The notes below the pieces were generated by a model that made no database searches, had not been told where the DNA came from, and worked only from the letters and a program-made list of their open reading frames with translations. From the IMG/VR virus record IMGVR_UViG_3300002092_001594, positions 1 through 64,000 of that record: a stretch of DNA of 64,000 nucleotides; one strand, given 5' to 3'. The DNA is from a virus. This document shows, one piece after another, positions 3,877-44,812 of the stretch (position 1 is its first letter; each line of letters starts with the position of its first letter). The position numbers and the translations under genes were made by a program.

Positions 3877-4039
3877 ATAATTCTTTATTAGGTGTATTAT
3901 CTGTTTTGTGATCTCTCTCAAGGTGTAGAACCAGGAAGGTTAATACTGTCGAGAGTATAAAAGCGATAACTAGTATCCCGATTACAAGATGTCTATTAAC
4001 TGTCTCTTCTGTAGTTTCAAAAGGATTATGCTTACTCAT
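3860..4039 (-). CDS. Small single-TM membrane protein
   Basis: Hydrophobic LVIGILVIAFILSTVLTFLVL. Confidence 0.6.
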   Translation of the reverse strand: MSKHNPFETTEETVNRHLVIGILVIAFILSTVLTFLVLHLERDHKTDNTPNKELYGKAN

Positions 4040-4322
4040 GTTTCTTTTTTTCAAATGTAATTGTCATATCTGCTTGCCTAGCAAATACTTCACCAGCTTC
4101 TGATATCTTACCCTTTCTTTTAAATTTAATCTTATTTAATAACATCATAGGTACTGCTAACCACGCAATCAACATAGCTGGAAATAGCTTTGCAATAAAT
4201 TCGAGTAATGTAAAGTACTCGCCATGGTCATCACTAGCAAATTTGCTTGAGGGATTCCTTACAAGCCACATAGCCCCATAAATGGTTGTCGCGATCCAAT
4301 AGATGATAAAGATTGTCTCCAT
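4032..4322 (-). CDS. Two-TM membrane protein
   Basis: Two hydrophobic segments. Confidence 0.65.
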   Translation of the reverse strand: METIFIIYWIATTIYGAMWLVRNPSSKFASDDHGEYFTLLEFIAKLFPAMLIAWLAVPMMLLNKIKFKRKGKISEAGEVFARQADMTITFEKKKHE

Positions 4323-29448: not shown

Positions 29449-30330
29449 CTAATCATTCTTTTTATCACATAATTCCAGCTTGTCGATATAAGGACAGAAC
29501 TTGCATTTATCTATATTCTTAGGATACTTCTTTTCCTGGTATTCTCCTTCTACTGTAAAAGCATCTTTAACGAAATTCTGAATATCTTCAAAAGCATCGT
29601 TTACTTTCTTAGTACCGTTTGCTGGTTTAAACTCTTGTACTCTCTTAGGGGCAAACTCTAAATTCTCATTGATTTTCCTACGGACTATAAAAAACTGTAC
29701 GTCTATCTTGTCTTCTGGTATTCCTTTTAAATTCGAAAAGAATTTCTTATAAAGAAGTATCTGATTAACCTTTACTTGATCTTTTTTCTCATAATCAGAC
29801 CAACCTCTTGTTGAGGTCTTGATATCGTAAATGATATACTTATCTAAAGCTTTATCGTAGATAACTAAGTCAATAAAGCCTTTCATAGTAACTTTATCGT
29901 AACCTTCTACGATAGGTCCTGTAATAGGAATTTCTATACCTATAAGCTTGGAGTTCTTCTTACTAAAGAATAAATTCCTTTTGCGTTTAAAAAACTCTAA
30001 GATAGCTACAGCATCTTCGTAGAACTCTGATAGCTCTTGCGGAGTAGAGAAATGGCCTGCATGAGCATTTGCTTTATACAGCTCCATTAGCTTAGTCTTA
30101 AAATAGGTAGGAAGATGTATCTTATCTGCTTCAGTAGCAGATTTATCAAACATTACTTGAAGATAGTTTTGTATTGTTTCATGAGCAGCAGTTCCGAAAA
30201 TTAAATGTATTGATGGTTTAAAGATTTTTAAGCCTCTAGCATATTCTAGATACCATCTATAGTTACACTGTTTATATACAGCATATTGGCTATAGCTAAC
30301 TGTCTTACTCTTTACTTTTTTCTTTTCCAT
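29449..30330 (-). CDS. PD-(D/E)XK RecB/Cas4-like exonuclease
   Basis: SYSQ..C, FGTAAHE, GFIDL, DIKT, Q..LY, C..CPY...C. Confidence 0.88.
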   Translation of the reverse strand: MEKKKVKSKTVSYSQYAVYKQCNYRWYLEYARGLKIFKPSIHLIFGTAAHETIQNYLQVMFDKSATEADKIHLPTYFKTKLMELYKANAHAGHFSTPQELSEFYEDAVAILEFFKRKRNLFFSKKNSKLIGIEIPITGPIVEGYDKVTMKGFIDLVIYDKALDKYIIYDIKTSTRGWSDYEKKDQVKVNQILLYKKFFSNLKGIPEDKIDVQFFIVRRKINENLEFAPKRVQEFKPANGTKKVNDAFEDIQNFVKDAFTVEGEYQEKKYPKNIDKCKFCPYIDKLELCDKKND

Positions 30331-31010
30331 ACGTAACCTTTTAATGTTTTGGGTTTATCTAAGTAGTACCTTAGTAATCCTTTACTTAGAGAGTACCTAT
30401 CGCTTACTTCTTTTATAGACGTCCATTGTTTAATAATAAGGCCATCTTCATGACATTGTAACACTGTTACTGTACGTCTCTTTACTTTACTATAATCTGT
30501 ATTAGCTCTCCTCTTCGCAACGGTTTCAGAAGATTGCTTCTTTCCATACATTGAATGTTCTTTCCCTGGTTTAAAAGTAGTTCTATTAGATTTCATAACG
30601 CCTTTTGTATCTTTATTCCAGGAAGTTTGTAAACCTTTCTTTCCTTTGTTCCAAGGCACTCTTCCTTTTCTACTATCGTATAAATGTTCTCTATTAGGAT
30701 GGTTTGTAGCTAAGTCTCCTCCAGTACCTCCTTCAGTTAAATTATATCCTACCGGATATAAACTTTGATGCTTTTTTATGTAATCGATTTCTAGCTGATC
30801 TAACTGTTCATATGTTTCTGCTATATGAATTATTTTGACACTGAATTGATTCCATCCATGACTCTTTATAGCAGAGTACAAGGGAGATTTTACCTTATCT
30901 ACATTTCGCTTATGAGTTTTAATACGTTTCTCTAAGTTTTTTGCTTGTCCTATATAACACTTACTGTCTAGTAGATTAGTAATTTTATAAATAACATTAG
31001 TACCTTTCAT
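30312..31010 (-). mobile_element. GIY-YIG homing endonuclease with NUMOD3-type repeats
   Basis: VIYKITN..YIGQ..R..H, GYNLTEGG, PWNKG repeats, MYGKK.S.E. Confidence 0.9.
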
Positions 31011-31570: not shown

Positions 31571-31604
31571 TTAAATGTAAAATAAAAAAACCAATCTATC
31601 AACT
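31571..31604 (-). promoter_or_regulatory. Class I promoter overlapping the RNA-operon terminator
   Basis: AGTTG-N20-TACATTTAA. Confidence 0.65.
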
Positions 31605-31617
31605 TTTAGACTGGTTT
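31584..31617 (-). terminator. Terminator after the RNA cluster
   Basis: AAACCAGTCTA...TAGATTGGTTT plus U tract. Confidence 0.7.
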
Positions 31618-31622
31618 AATTT

Positions 31623-31785
31623 TGCTGTAGGAGAAGGACTTGAACCTTCACGCAGCGATTCGGAAAGTAACACAATGCTTGCAAGCAGGTGGTCAACCCC
31701 ATATTACTTTTCTATTTCGTTCTCTGCACCCTCGAGACGAGAGGGTGTGTCTGCCAGGCATCGATAGCCTTCCACCATCCTACAG
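31623..31785 (-). ncRNA. Expanded tRNA-like RNA (~160 nt) with a Leu-type body
   Basis: Acceptor (C)TGTAGGA/TCCTACA(G); T arm GAAGG-TTCAAGT-CCTTC; D arm GTG..GGCAGA-CAC with inserted hairpin; ~75-nt variable arm. Confidence 0.75.
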
Positions 31786-31789
31786 TATA

Positions 31790-32038
31790 CTAATAGACGT
31801 TATCTTCTTGGTCTATTCTAAAATCCAATTTAGTCTGATCAATTCTAGCTTGCTCTGCTTCTTTGTACCAGCGTATCCAAGTTAAAGATACATCGACTGG
31901 AGCTAATACCCAAGCCATAACTAATACCATAATAGCATCTAGTTCAGGAGAATTATATTCAGTTCCTGATCTTTTATATCTTTTGTTTAATTGATAAAAG
32001 CAATAGATAACACAAATAATGTAATAAGTCAAAAACAT
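31790..32038 (-). CDS. Small two-TM membrane protein within the RNA cluster
   Basis: Hydrophobic segments; similar layout to 4032..4322. Confidence 0.6.
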   Translation of the reverse strand: MFLTYYIICVIYCFYQLNKRYKRSGTEYNSPELDAIMVLVMAWVLAPVDVSLTWIRWYKEAEQARIDQTKLDFRIDQEDNVY

Positions 32039-32052
32039 AATAAATAATTTTG

Positions 32053-32137
32053 CGGAAAGCCAAGGATTCGAACCTCAGAACCTGTTACAGTTGCCGGTTT
32101 TCAAGACCGGTGCATTCAACCACTCTGCCAGCTTTCC
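32053..32137 (-). tRNA. tRNA-Ser(UGA)
   Basis: GGAAAGC acceptor, CCGGT-CTTGAAA-ACCGG, long variable arm, TTCGAAT; CCA not encoded. Confidence 0.93.
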
Positions 32138-32142
32138 AATAG

Positions 32143-32240
32143 GATGAGGTTTAGCGGCCAACTAAACAAAGTTACTACTTGCTCTCACCTCGAGTTACAC
32201 GTGACAGTTACGGGTGAATAGGGTTTCGTCAACACTCATC
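32143..32240 (-). ncRNA. Unidentified structured RNA A
   Basis: GATGAG/CTCATC closing stem, TCACC/GGTGA, GTTTAG/CTAAAC, possible TGACG/TGTCA pseudoknot. Confidence 0.55.
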
Positions 32241-32244
32241 TTTG

Positions 32245-32316
32245 AGCTCAGTCCCAGACTTGAACTGGGGATACAAGATTACAAATCTAGCGTTATACCA
32301 ACTTAACTAACCAAGC
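32245..32316 (-). tRNA. tRNA-Thr(UGU)
   Basis: GCTTGGT/ACTGAGC acceptor, loop TT-TGT-AA, CCCAG-TTCAAGT-CTGGG; one U-U mismatch in the anticodon stem. Confidence 0.85.
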
Positions 32317-32318
32317 AT

Positions 32319-32508
32319 TACAACTTTTATATTCACCTTCAGAGTTGTCAACTGTGCCTACACCGACGATTAGGAGCTATTAAGCGAGCAGATCTTACGG
32401 TATGCCACGGCTGTGTTTCGATCCCGTGTACTTAGGGCTAATTATTTAAAGGACACCTTTATTAGTTATTTAAACGTGAGAGGACGGAATCCGTAGCCCC
32501 AGCGTTCC
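32319..32508 (-). ncRNA. Unidentified structured RNA B (multi-pseudoknot)
   Basis: GAACG/CGTTT, TGGGGC/GCCCTA pseudoknot, CACGG/CCGTG, ATACCG/CGGTGT, ACAACT/AGTTGT. Confidence 0.55.
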
Positions 32509-32520
32509 TTAAATATTTTA

Positions 32521-32646
32521 GGAAAGTAGAAGATGGGTGCGTGGACATCTACTTTTACGATTGGCATTACTTTGGTATCGTTTAACCGCCTCACCCTATA
32601 CCGGCCCTTTCTACAGTTAAAAGGTATAGGGTTTCCCAATCAACCT
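32521..32646 (-). ncRNA. Unidentified structured RNA C
   Basis: GATTGG/CCAATC, CCCTATACC/GGTATAGGG, AAAGTAGA/TCTACTTT stems. Confidence 0.6.
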
Positions 32647-32650
32647 ACTT

Positions 32651-33056
32651 TGTGGAGACGCAGGGAATTGAACCCTGGTCTTGCGAAGTAATTATAATAC
32701 CAGCGTATCACACGTTTAGATCTACGTTTTAAGCTGATCAGTAGTGAAAGGGCCGTACAGTTAAGTACCAGCTACCACCACTTGGTTTTATGACTACCAA
32801 GAAACTCCCAGAAGGAGCAGAGCTATAATACTGAGACTATAGCGGGGTTTGTCACTTCTTTTTAAAGTCCCATGAGTGATACGGGATGTGATTAAGCAGC
32901 GTAAGCGTACTCATCAGCACCTACGAAAGACATTAAGTCTTCGAAGGTCATAGTTGACATTTCGTCGTTTGTTGTTTTGCAAGTATTTAAAGACATTCAT
33001 GCTTTGTCTACGTGTGGTACTATCCTTCTCATCGCAATCAATACCAAGTCGTCCCC
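32651..33056 (-). ncRNA. ssrA: tmRNA
   Basis: GGGGACG/CGTCTCC-A acceptor with G3-U70; T arm CAGGG-TTCAATT-CCCTG; tag ORF 32892..32966 ending YAYAA*. Confidence 0.93.
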
Positions 33057-43174: not shown

Positions 43175-44812
43175 TTAATACATTCCCATGTTCGGGTCTT
43201 GTTCTTGCTTCTTCTTATCGTCTCTCTTTTCAAAGATAACTGATTCTGTTGTCAAGATAGTTCCTGCTACAGATGCTGCATTCTCTAAAGCCGTACGAGT
43301 TACTTTAGTTGGATCTAATAATCCTACTGTAAATGCATCTACTATTTCTTGCTTCTTAGCATCATAAGTAAAAGAATCTGCCTCTGTTGCATTTTTTAAG
43401 ATCGAATAGTAATCTTCAATACCGCAGTTGCTTAAGATAGTCTTAAATGGTGCGTAACATGTTTTCTTTACAATATCAAAACCTAATAATTCATCTGATG
43501 ATATCTCTCTAGGTAAAATCGGTAAGTTATTAACTGCTCTAATCAAAGCAATACCGCCACCAGGAACGACACCTTCTGTTAAGGCTGCTTTAGTAGCAAA
43601 TAAAGCATCTTCTACTCTATCTTTTCTCTCTTTAATTTCAATATCAGAATTACCTCCTACTGAAATGATAGCTACACCGCCAACTAGTTTACCTAATCTC
43701 TCTTGTAACTTTTCTTTCTCGTAGAATGAAGTAGCTTTCTCAATTTGATCTTTAATCTCTTGAGCACGTGCTGTAATCTTCTCTACCTCTCCATTACCAT
43801 CAACGATAGTAGTTGTTTCTTTAGCTACATTAATTGTTCTAGCTTTACCAAACATTTCTACAAGTTGAACAGGAGTTAATTTATCTAACTTATGTCCTTT
43901 ATCTTTAGAGATAACTGTACCGCCTGTTAAGATAGCTAAGTCTTCTAAGATTAAAGTTCTTCTCTCTCCAAAATCTGGAGCTTTAACTGCTGCTACTGAA
44001 ACAATACCTCTCATCTTATTTACAATCAAAGTAGCTAATGCTTCATCTTCGATATCTTCTGCAACAATTAATAAAGGTTTGTTATCTGAGTTTACTTTGC
44101 TTAATGCATTTAATAATTCAGCTGCTTTAGTAATACGTCCGTCGTAGATTAAGATGTATGGTTCAGTTAATGAAGCATTCATCGTAGTGTTGTTAGTAAC
44201 AAAGTATGGAGATTTATAACCTCTATCAAATTGCATACCTTCTACAATCTCTAAACTAGTTTCACCTGTCTTAGATTCTTCGATAGTAACAATACCCTCT
44301 CTACCTACCTTTTCGATAGCTGTAGAGATTAAGTTACCTACCTCTACATCGCCGTTAGCTGAAATAGTAGCTACTTGTTGGATTTGATCTTGCGAACTTA
44401 CATCCTTAGCAATTTTTTTGATTTGCTCTACTACCTGTGCTACGTACTTATCGATACCCTTCTTTACTTCTACTGGATTAGATCCTTGGTTAATTAACTT
44501 TAAACCTTCTTCTACCATAGTAGCTGCAAGTAAAGTAGAGGTAGTAGTACCGTCGCCTGCTTCATTAGCAGACTTAATAGATACTTGCTTTACTAATTGT
44601 GCGCCTAAGTCTTCTACTTGGTCTTCTAACTCATGAAAAGATTTAGCTACTGTAACGCCATCTTTAGTTACTTTTACTTCGCCTGATTGATCTTTAATCA
44701 ATACTGTTCTACCGCCTGGTCCTAATGTTGAGGATACCGACTGGTTTAGCTGTTTAATACCTGCTAATAATTTATTTTTTAGCTCAATTCCGAAAACTGT
44801 CTGTGTTGCCAT
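43175..44812 (-). CDS. groEL: Chaperonin GroEL
   Basis: [38 protein letters not shown]. Confidence 0.97.

Follow-up and report, generated by a model that had tools for sequence, protein, structure and literature searches.

The stretch of DNA analysed here (the window, 64,000 nucleotides) comes from a lake phage and is the beginning of a 115-kb IMG/VR virus record, about 66% complete. Its minus strand carries a tmRNA, a tRNA-Thr and a tRNA-Ser gene, then a gene for a small membrane protein, and then, as last member of the tmRNA-tRNA cluster with a terminator behind it, the gene for a tRNA-like RNA with a giant variable arm (table 1). The 82-aa membrane protein matches no Pfam or PHROG family; at 61 of the roughly 85 phage loci a homologue ends 3–5 nt ahead of the RNA, and the tie between the two may be one of shared synteny only. 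The genes conserved beside the RNA in phages encode a small and a coiled-coil membrane protein, homing endonucleases and a PD-(D/E)XK nuclease; neither an RNA enzyme nor a partner enzyme is among them. In many relatives (e.g. loci L180, L200, L211 and L219) a shared motif, (G/A)TTACYGTTCTTTGACATATAAGGAG, lies between the RNA and the downstream gene, whose product is a coiled-coil protein with a single membrane pass; this motif resembles a phage promoter plus ribosome-binding site, and the window has its terminator at that place.

Table 1. Features of the giant-armed RNA gene and its surroundings in the window. Percentages and fractions refer to the 100-member alignment described in the text.
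Feature	Position	Strand	Remarks
Whole RNA gene, U1 to C74	31624..31784	-	161 nt; model R1 147.9 bits, E 1e-36, full length
Acceptor 5' strand UGUAGGA	31778..31784	-	partner 31626-31632; 7/7 pairs 100% paired (100 sequences), 6/7 compensatory
D arm: stem GUG/CAC, A14 A15, hairpin insert, G18 G19	31747..31775	-	stem 99.3% paired; U11-A24 to C11-G24
D-loop hairpin insert GGC-UAUCGAU-GCC, palindromic core AUCGAU	31757..31769	-	variable across members
Anticodon-like arm CCCUC-UCGUCUC-GAGGG	31729..31745	-	GUC at 31736-31738; stem 99.6% paired; pair 30-40 occurs as 5 pair types
Giant variable arm, branched	31652..31727	-	76 nt; helices 4 to 8 all with compensatory changes
Conserved internal loop, AAUA (5' side) and GAA (3' side)	31713..31716 and 31659-31661	-	A116, A118, A198 and A199 of alignment A3 invariant
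Conserved arm loop U-GGGGUUGACCAC-C	31688..31701	-	GGGUUGACCAC in 99/100
Arm hairpin UGCUUGCAAGCA	31676..31687	-	perfect 12-nt palindrome, self-complementary tetraloop UGCA
T arm GAAGG-UUCAAGU-CCUUC	31633..31649	-	4/5 pairs compensatory; loop UUCRANU invariant at U54 U55 C56 A58
Acceptor 3' strand UCCUACA + G73 + C74	31624..31632	-	G73 98/100, C74 99/100
Intrinsic-terminator-like hairpin and U run	31588..31617	-	11-pair stem, then TTTTATTTTA; 6 nt 3' of the RNA
82-aa ORF, small two-helix membrane protein	31790..32038	-	upstream of the RNA; stop codon 5 nt before it
Upstream same-strand RNA cluster	32052..33056	-	tmRNA 33056-32650, tRNA-Thr 32316-32244, tRNA-Ser 32137-32052; ARAGORN and Rfam

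The spacers within the upstream cluster are long (333 nt at 32317-32649 and 106 nt at 32138-32243, minus strand) and hold no convincing ORF. Metatranscriptome contigs from four runs cover the tmRNA, and the giant-armed RNA is touched by generic tRNA contigs only; positions 32496-32651 are also covered by such contigs, in one run to a maximum depth of 338. A gene for a GIY-YIG/NUMOD3 homing endonuclease (30312-31010, minus strand), which follows the RNA cluster at a distance of about 0.6 kb on its downstream side, recalls by its placement segB inside the T4 tRNA cluster, and in several relatives HNH endonucleases lie next to the RNA. The closest DNA polymerase to that of the window phage belongs to Flavobacterium phage immuto (57.7% identity), the closest cultured phage, from which the RNA is absent. 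The window also encodes a full-length GroEL chaperonin (43175-44812, minus strand; PHROG 5725, E 4e-150), and immuto encodes both GroES and GroEL. No tRNA-synt_2, CCA-adding or TGT domain was found in the roughly 66% of the phage's own genome that is represented in the record.

An earlier note, made from the letters alone, had placed a tRNA-like RNA with an oversized variable arm at 31623-31785. The RNA is indeed there, on the minus strand, and its exact ends are 31784 (U1) and 31624 (C74), one base less on each side. All of the structural features listed in that note are present. The 7-bp acceptor stem is intact, although the eighth (C-G) pair drawn by the note is not conserved among relatives, and U8 and G9 follow it. 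The D loop is of the tRNA-Leu type (AA...UGGCAGA) on its GUG/CAC stem and is split by the inserted GGC-UAUCGAU-GCC hairpin; the T arm, GAAGG-UUCAAGU-CCUUC, is 100% paired across the 100 family members aligned below. The anticodon stem CCCUC/GAGGG closes the loop UCGUCUC, which has C33 and U37 and so neither U33 nor a purine at 37, and the variable arm is closed by GCAG/CUGC and contains a helix and a sub-hairpin. The CCA end is only partly encoded in the DNA. Thus the RNA has the parts by which a cloverleaf is recognised (7-bp acceptor, D arm with G18 G19, T arm with UUCRANY), and lacks a canonical 7-nt loop with U33 and purine 37 as well as a variable region of normal size (the arm is 76 nt); the standard models, ARAGORN and RF00005, are silent on it.

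Homologues were first reached through a neighbouring protein, and these five already had obvious compensatory changes. A degenerate anticodon-arm pattern then found 89 IMG/VR stretches (3 of them chance matches), and a second pattern, which combined the arm with the T stem and left the anticodon loop free, gave at least 119 matches; a first, loose D-arm pattern was dropped because its matches were mostly chance. Full-length copies are present at no fewer than 124 IMG/VR loci (93 distinct sequences among those 124), on contigs of 5 to 321 kb, and jumbo phages are among the carriers. A covariance model, R1, yielded an alignment of 100 members, mostly from IMG/VR phage contigs. Pairing is kept in 94.2% of the pair cells of this alignment, and both partners have changed in 34 of the 42 pairs. 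Shuffles give a covariation score of 0.18 against the observed 0.50, which 0 of 500 of them reach, and sliding the partners gives at most 0.094. The folding energy of the window RNA by itself is unremarkable (z = -1.09); it is the comparative evidence that decides that the RNA is real. Covariation among homologues had been set beforehand as the test, and it is clearly present; the claim that pairing is preserved, which argues against decay, is upheld for every helix that had been drawn. We are all but certain that this is a conserved structured RNA gene, and chance and decay are effectively excluded as the origin of its structure.

The family is widespread, yet it is missed by tRNA finders and is missing from Rfam 15, where the giant-armed RNA has no match at the gathering score or at E values up to 10. 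A blastn search of 50,697 GenBank phage records matched the T arm alone, and literature searches found no description of the family in print; as far as we found, it is new both to Rfam 15 and to the literature. Two known identities could be set aside. The RNA is not a second tmRNA, because its pair 3-70 is U-A and not G3-U70 (the real tmRNA lies at 33056-32650), nor a YrlA or bacterial Y RNA, since there is no Rfam match at E up to 10 and no Ro-like gene among the conserved neighbours. Its body is closest to the class II tRNAs, especially bacterial and phage tRNA-Leu (RF00005), with which it shares a 7-bp acceptor, a 3-bp D stem, an AA...GG D loop, a canonical T arm and an extra arm that departs from positions 44–48; tRNA-Leu(UAA) is the top ordinary tRNA against the family model (33 bits). 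Unlike tRNA-Leu, it has a branched arm of 70–80 nt (tRNA-Leu arms have about 20 nt at most), G73 rather than A73, the triplet GUC, and no U33 or R37.

One feature had escaped the earlier note, the invariance of positions 34–36 as GUC. Across the 100 members the invariant positions are U1-A72, U8, G9, A14, A15, G34 U35 C36 and U54 U55 C56 A58, with G2-C71 in 96, G10 in 94, G73 in 98 and C74 in 99; about two-thirds of this set were gathered with a pattern that fixes UCGUCU. The set collected blind to the loop contains the variants UUGUCUC, CUGUCUC, CCGUCUC and CAGUCAC, and GUC is kept in every one. The positions around the triplet are freer: 32 is U in 83 members and C in 17, 33 is C in 85, U in 13 and A in 2, 37 is U in 98 and A in 2, and 38 is C in 85, A in 14 and U in 1. 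The tRNA frame itself (U8, A14, G18 G19, the T loop and G73-C74) is kept, and the ordinary tRNAs of these phages likewise end in G-C. U33 and a purine at 37 are near-universal requirements of decoding. The pattern of conservation therefore fits aspartyl-tRNA synthetase (AspRS), which reads positions 34–36 and 73, better than it fits the ribosome.

The published aspartate identity set is G34 U35 C36, G73, G2-C71, G10 and C38, with G1-C72 important for bacterial AspRS (PMC9976931). The major determinants are all there in the family (GUC in 100/100 and G73 in 98/100), and among the acceptor determinants G2-C71 is present in 96/100, yet pair 1-72 is U-A in 100/100. The RNA is thus like canonical tRNA-Asp(GUC) in G34 U35 C36, C38, G73, G2-C71 and G10, and unlike it in having U1-A72 in place of G1-C72, a class II body and U37, and the true phage tRNA-Asp looks quite different. 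Such a canonical tRNA-Asp (GUC, G1-C72, loop CUGUCAC) is present in the same large tRNA arrays at six phage loci, so the giant-armed RNA is not simply the tRNA-Asp of these phages; in jumbo phages tRNAs lie only 2–3 nt upstream of it. The earlier note had concluded that this is not a decoding tRNA. The pyrimidine at 37 in 98/100 members, the C, U or A at 33, the 76-nt arm and the tRNA-Asp alongside make this the likelier reading. Of the functions which that note had proposed, the invariant GUC and the aspartate identity set favour an amino-acid donor or other client of the tRNA machinery over a Y-RNA-like scaffold. It should be said that the invariant GUC is equally compatible with codon reading or with some other factor that binds GUC.

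The first of these possibilities would make the RNA a decoding tRNA-Asp isoacceptor whose altered flanks (positions 32, 33, 37 and 38) and bulky arms resist a host nuclease or toxin directed against tRNA-Asp, so that the phage would go on translating GAC and GAU once the host tRNA-Asp is destroyed. An invariant anticodon with varying flanking loop positions is what is found here, and phage tRNAs that evade nucleases are reported to have this pattern (PMC10264068); the nucleotides of the L shape, the T arm and the G73-C74 end are also intact, and most bacterial copies (below) have U33. We nevertheless think this explanation unlikely, because position 33 is C in 85% and A in 2% of members and G in one bacterial copy, 37 is nearly always a pyrimidine, the conserved motifs of the arm are left unexplained, and an anti-defence role is a poor fit to copies that reside in bacterial chromosomes under an AsnC-type regulator.

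The second would have the RNA stay uncharged and act as a decoy or sponge for a factor that binds tRNA-Asp, which might be a modification enzyme, a nuclease that cuts anticodons, or AspRS itself in a regulatory role. The tRNA shape, the invariant GUC in a loop otherwise unfit for decoding, and the co-existing normal tRNA-Asp all agree with this, and there are precedents in the anticodon-loop mimics of the thrS and yeast AspRS mRNAs, which bind their own synthetases (PMC9976931). The acceptor end of the family, however, is as strict as the loop (U1-A72 in 100/100, G73 in 98/100 and C74 in 99/100), which a decoy for the anticodon arm would not need. To our knowledge no tRNA-Asp-specific nuclease has been described in Bacteroidota, which also counts against a decoy, and we regard it as improbable.

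The family is not confined to phages. Among 151 sampled Bacteroidota genomes, 14 (about 9%) contain R1 matches of 54–123 bits, which lie on large contigs, several of them at megabase-scale coordinates; none of 151 genomes of the Psychrobacter phylum has a match. The 17 bacterial copies analysed keep U1-A72, G73-C74, the pyrimidine at 37 and, mostly, the GGGUUGACCAC loop of the arm, and Rfam searches of four of them at E up to 1 returned nothing relevant. They lack the D-loop hairpin, have only scattered palindromes and mostly have U33 (one has G at this position), which indicates that C33 and the self-complementary loops discussed below are largely features of the phage lineage, and the bacterial copies, being mostly U33, could decode. 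A divergent Lrp/AsnC regulator of about 155 aa directly adjoins the RNA at 9 of 13 bacterial loci. The bacterial gene thus appears to be under an Lrp/AsnC-type amino-acid regulator, and regulation of this kind points to amino-acid (Asp/Asn) metabolism or signalling. One genome (G138) has tandem 110-nt copies with a short arm (L350, 1279-1389 and 1501-1610), whose loop, CUUUCUC, has the Glu anticodon UUC in place of GUC.

The bacterial setting bears on another possibility, that the RNA is a carrier for tRNA-dependent amidation, which AspRS would load with Asp and the amidotransferase GatCAB, recognising U1-A72, would convert to Asn off the ribosome. U1-A72 is a determinant for GatCAB, and G1-C72 and U20a are antideterminants (PMC9976931). 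The family satisfies these signals in its sequence, in that U1-A72 is present in 100/100 members, G1-C72 is absent and there is no U20a-type D-loop signal, and these stand together with the Asp determinants. The neighbouring regulator is of the Lrp/AsnC family, and the tandem UUC copies are of interest because Glu is the other substrate of the amidotransferase; Lrp/AsnC regulators, however, respond to a wide variety of amino acids. All 14 RNA-bearing genomes have GatB, but as it is present in 126 of the 151 genomes overall this is not significant. Moreover, AsnRS and an AsnB-type asparagine synthetase are encoded in 5 of the 5 RNA-bearing genomes examined (those with the copy on a megabase-scale contig), and so there is no apparent need for an amidation route; AsnA, in 4 of 151 genomes, is too rare for any pattern of replacement to be read. 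The comparison with the tRNA-Asn of the indirect pathway (non-discriminating AspRS plus GatCAB) is similarly divided: U1-A72, G73, a G-U-N anticodon and GatB in all RNA-bearing genomes are shared, whereas position 36 of the giant-armed RNA is C and not U, and AsnRS and AsnB accompany it in the genomes examined. We judge this role, too, to be rather improbable. At one bacterial locus (L358, G010:C2) the RNA (1309959-1310120) and asnS, which encodes AsnRS (1316125-1317510), are only 6 kb apart; the gene is near the RNA in this genome and not in the other four, so this is probably coincidence.

The giant arm has an architecture of its own. At its base a closing stem, GCNG/CNGC, is followed by a 4-nt bulge, three pairs and an internal loop (5'-RAYA / 5'-GAA) in which four adenines never vary and which by eye only resembles the AGUA/GAA S-turn; toward the tip come an 11-pair covarying helix, the invariant GGGUUGACCAC loop and a short hairpin. 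The positions flanking GGGUUGACCAC covary as a pair (U-A in 68 members, G-C in 17), which indicates that it is closed as a loop. Within it lies GAC, which is complementary to GUC and, like it, invariant; judged by the lengths of the arms, a GUC:GAC contact in cis is unlikely.

This architecture also bears on whether the gene is an interrupted tRNA gene whose transcript becomes a normal tRNA by losing the inserts in its D loop and variable arm, an outcome that the earlier note had named as refuting its reading. Without the 13-nt D insert the D loop would be that of a textbook class II tRNA, and relatives that lack the insert exist. But the anticodon loop, abnormal in its C33 and U37, is not part of the inserts, and the arm, with its invariant motifs and covarying helices, looks like a functional domain. 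There is also no Rfam intron or ribozyme match at E up to 10 and no group I core or bulge-helix-bulge motif, and no joined form occurs among the RNA contigs, whose coverage is poor. We consider splicing to a normal tRNA very improbable indeed.

Two hairpins of the phage copies end in self-complementary loops. In the arm hairpin a palindrome of at least 6 nt is present in 93 of the 100 members and one of at least 8 nt in 92 (about 5% of shuffles), and its centre takes eight forms (CCGG, UGCA, AGCU, CGCG, UCGA, GCGC, GUAC and CAUG). The D insert, which is missing from 9 of the 100 phage-set members and from all 17 bacterial copies, has a palindrome of at least 6 nt in 62/100 and a perfect one of at least 8 nt in 56/100 (5.5% of shuffles), again with eight different self-complementary tetranucleotides at the centre, where adjacent nucleotides show Watson-Crick covariation. 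Adjacent nucleotides cannot pair with each other within one chain. A signature of this kind, loops that switch among palindromes, supported the symmetric kissing loops of OLE and GOLLD that were validated by cryo-EM (Kretsch et al., PMC12286853); these are phage-associated RNAs found near tRNA islands that form RNA-only multimers (PMC12286853). The phage copies have the same property, as their loops covary and stay self-complementary, and by analogy with OLE and GOLLD we infer that they pair with one another through the two tetraloops. RNAcofold does not separate them from shuffled sequences (dimer gain -12 to -17 kcal/mol versus -9.7 ± 3.0), and the palindromic tetraloops could instead be of DNA-level or mutational origin.

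A more elaborate proposal, which we put forward as speculative and on balance unlikely, is that copies of the phage RNA assemble with one another. Each would act as a vertex with three arms in the shape of a tRNA and carry two different self-complementary tetraloops, at the elbow (the D hairpin) and at the tip of the giant arm, its invariant GUC possibly meeting the invariant GAC of a partner, and together they would build a defined dimer or closed multimer displaying aminoacylatable CCA ends. If this is true, the phage RNA would form a small equivalent, derived from tRNA, of the cages built by ROOL and GOLLD. The RNA is like ROOL, GOLLD and OLE (PMC12286853) in that these are phage- or prophage-encoded near tRNA islands and have loop tetranucleotides that switch among palindromes; it differs from them in its tRNA shape and in its size, theirs being 3 to 5 times as great, and has no sequence or Rfam relation to them, and its own oligomerisation is a prediction from the loops.

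The explanation we prefer, to which we give about an even chance, is that the window carries a phage copy of a tRNA-derived RNA family of Bacteroidota and their phages that is recognised by AspRS, does not decode and has gained self-pairing loops in the phages. The RNA would be excised and receive its CCA end like a tRNA, as suggested by the tRNA frame that it keeps, the G73-C74 end that it has in common with neighbouring tRNAs, the tRNAs close upstream in jumbo phages and the terminator behind it. Host AspRS would then recognise it and probably load it with aspartate, as exactly the AspRS determinants are frozen; charging may be poor, given U1-A72 in place of G1-C72. In view of the free or missing U33 and purine 37, the huge arm and the normal tRNA-Asp alongside, it would not serve as an ordinary decoder, and so it probably works off the ribosome. 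The added function would be borne by the giant arm, through its GGGUUGACCAC loop and S-turn-like internal loop, and in phages the two added tetraloop hairpins may join copies into a dimer or larger assembly.

Several systems offer parallels to such a diversion from translation. The cell-wall tRNA-Gly of Staphylococcus and tRNA-Other of Bacillus cereus are tRNA paralogues of normal size that use a synthetase and are diverted from the ribosome; unlike them, the giant-armed RNA has a structured arm and self-complementary loops. The phage T4 species 1 and 2 RNAs (rnaC and rnaD) are also alike: they are stable RNAs of about 120–140 nt, the 3' part of each resembles a T arm, and they are encoded where a phage tRNA cluster ends. 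Homology was rejected, as a search of the T4 tRNA region with R1 at E up to 1 came back empty. tmRNA, the cell-wall tRNAs and Y-RNA-like RNAs are tRNA-derived RNAs that act outside translation, and each opened new biology. The conservation in the present family predicts AspRS recognition without decoding, a possible GatCAB step, control by an amino-acid-sensing Lrp/AsnC protein and, for the phage copies, self-association between RNAs. Should such oligomers form, the phage copies would offer a compact model of about 160 nt for the unexplained RNA-only assemblies beside phage tRNA islands.

Two relatives deserve separate mention. At L007 (13261-13364, plus strand) there is a different, 104-nt tRNA-like RNA (R1 36.9 bits, no ARAGORN call); its acceptor has 8 bp, its D arm is Leu-like and its extra arm is long, and it shows no clear anticodon arm. 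Another phage (L291, minus strand) carries tandem copies of the giant RNA at 3960-4107 and 4114-4271; in the second copy a plain long hairpin replaces the GGGUUGACCAC loop and the palindromic hairpin, and GUC and the internal loop are kept.
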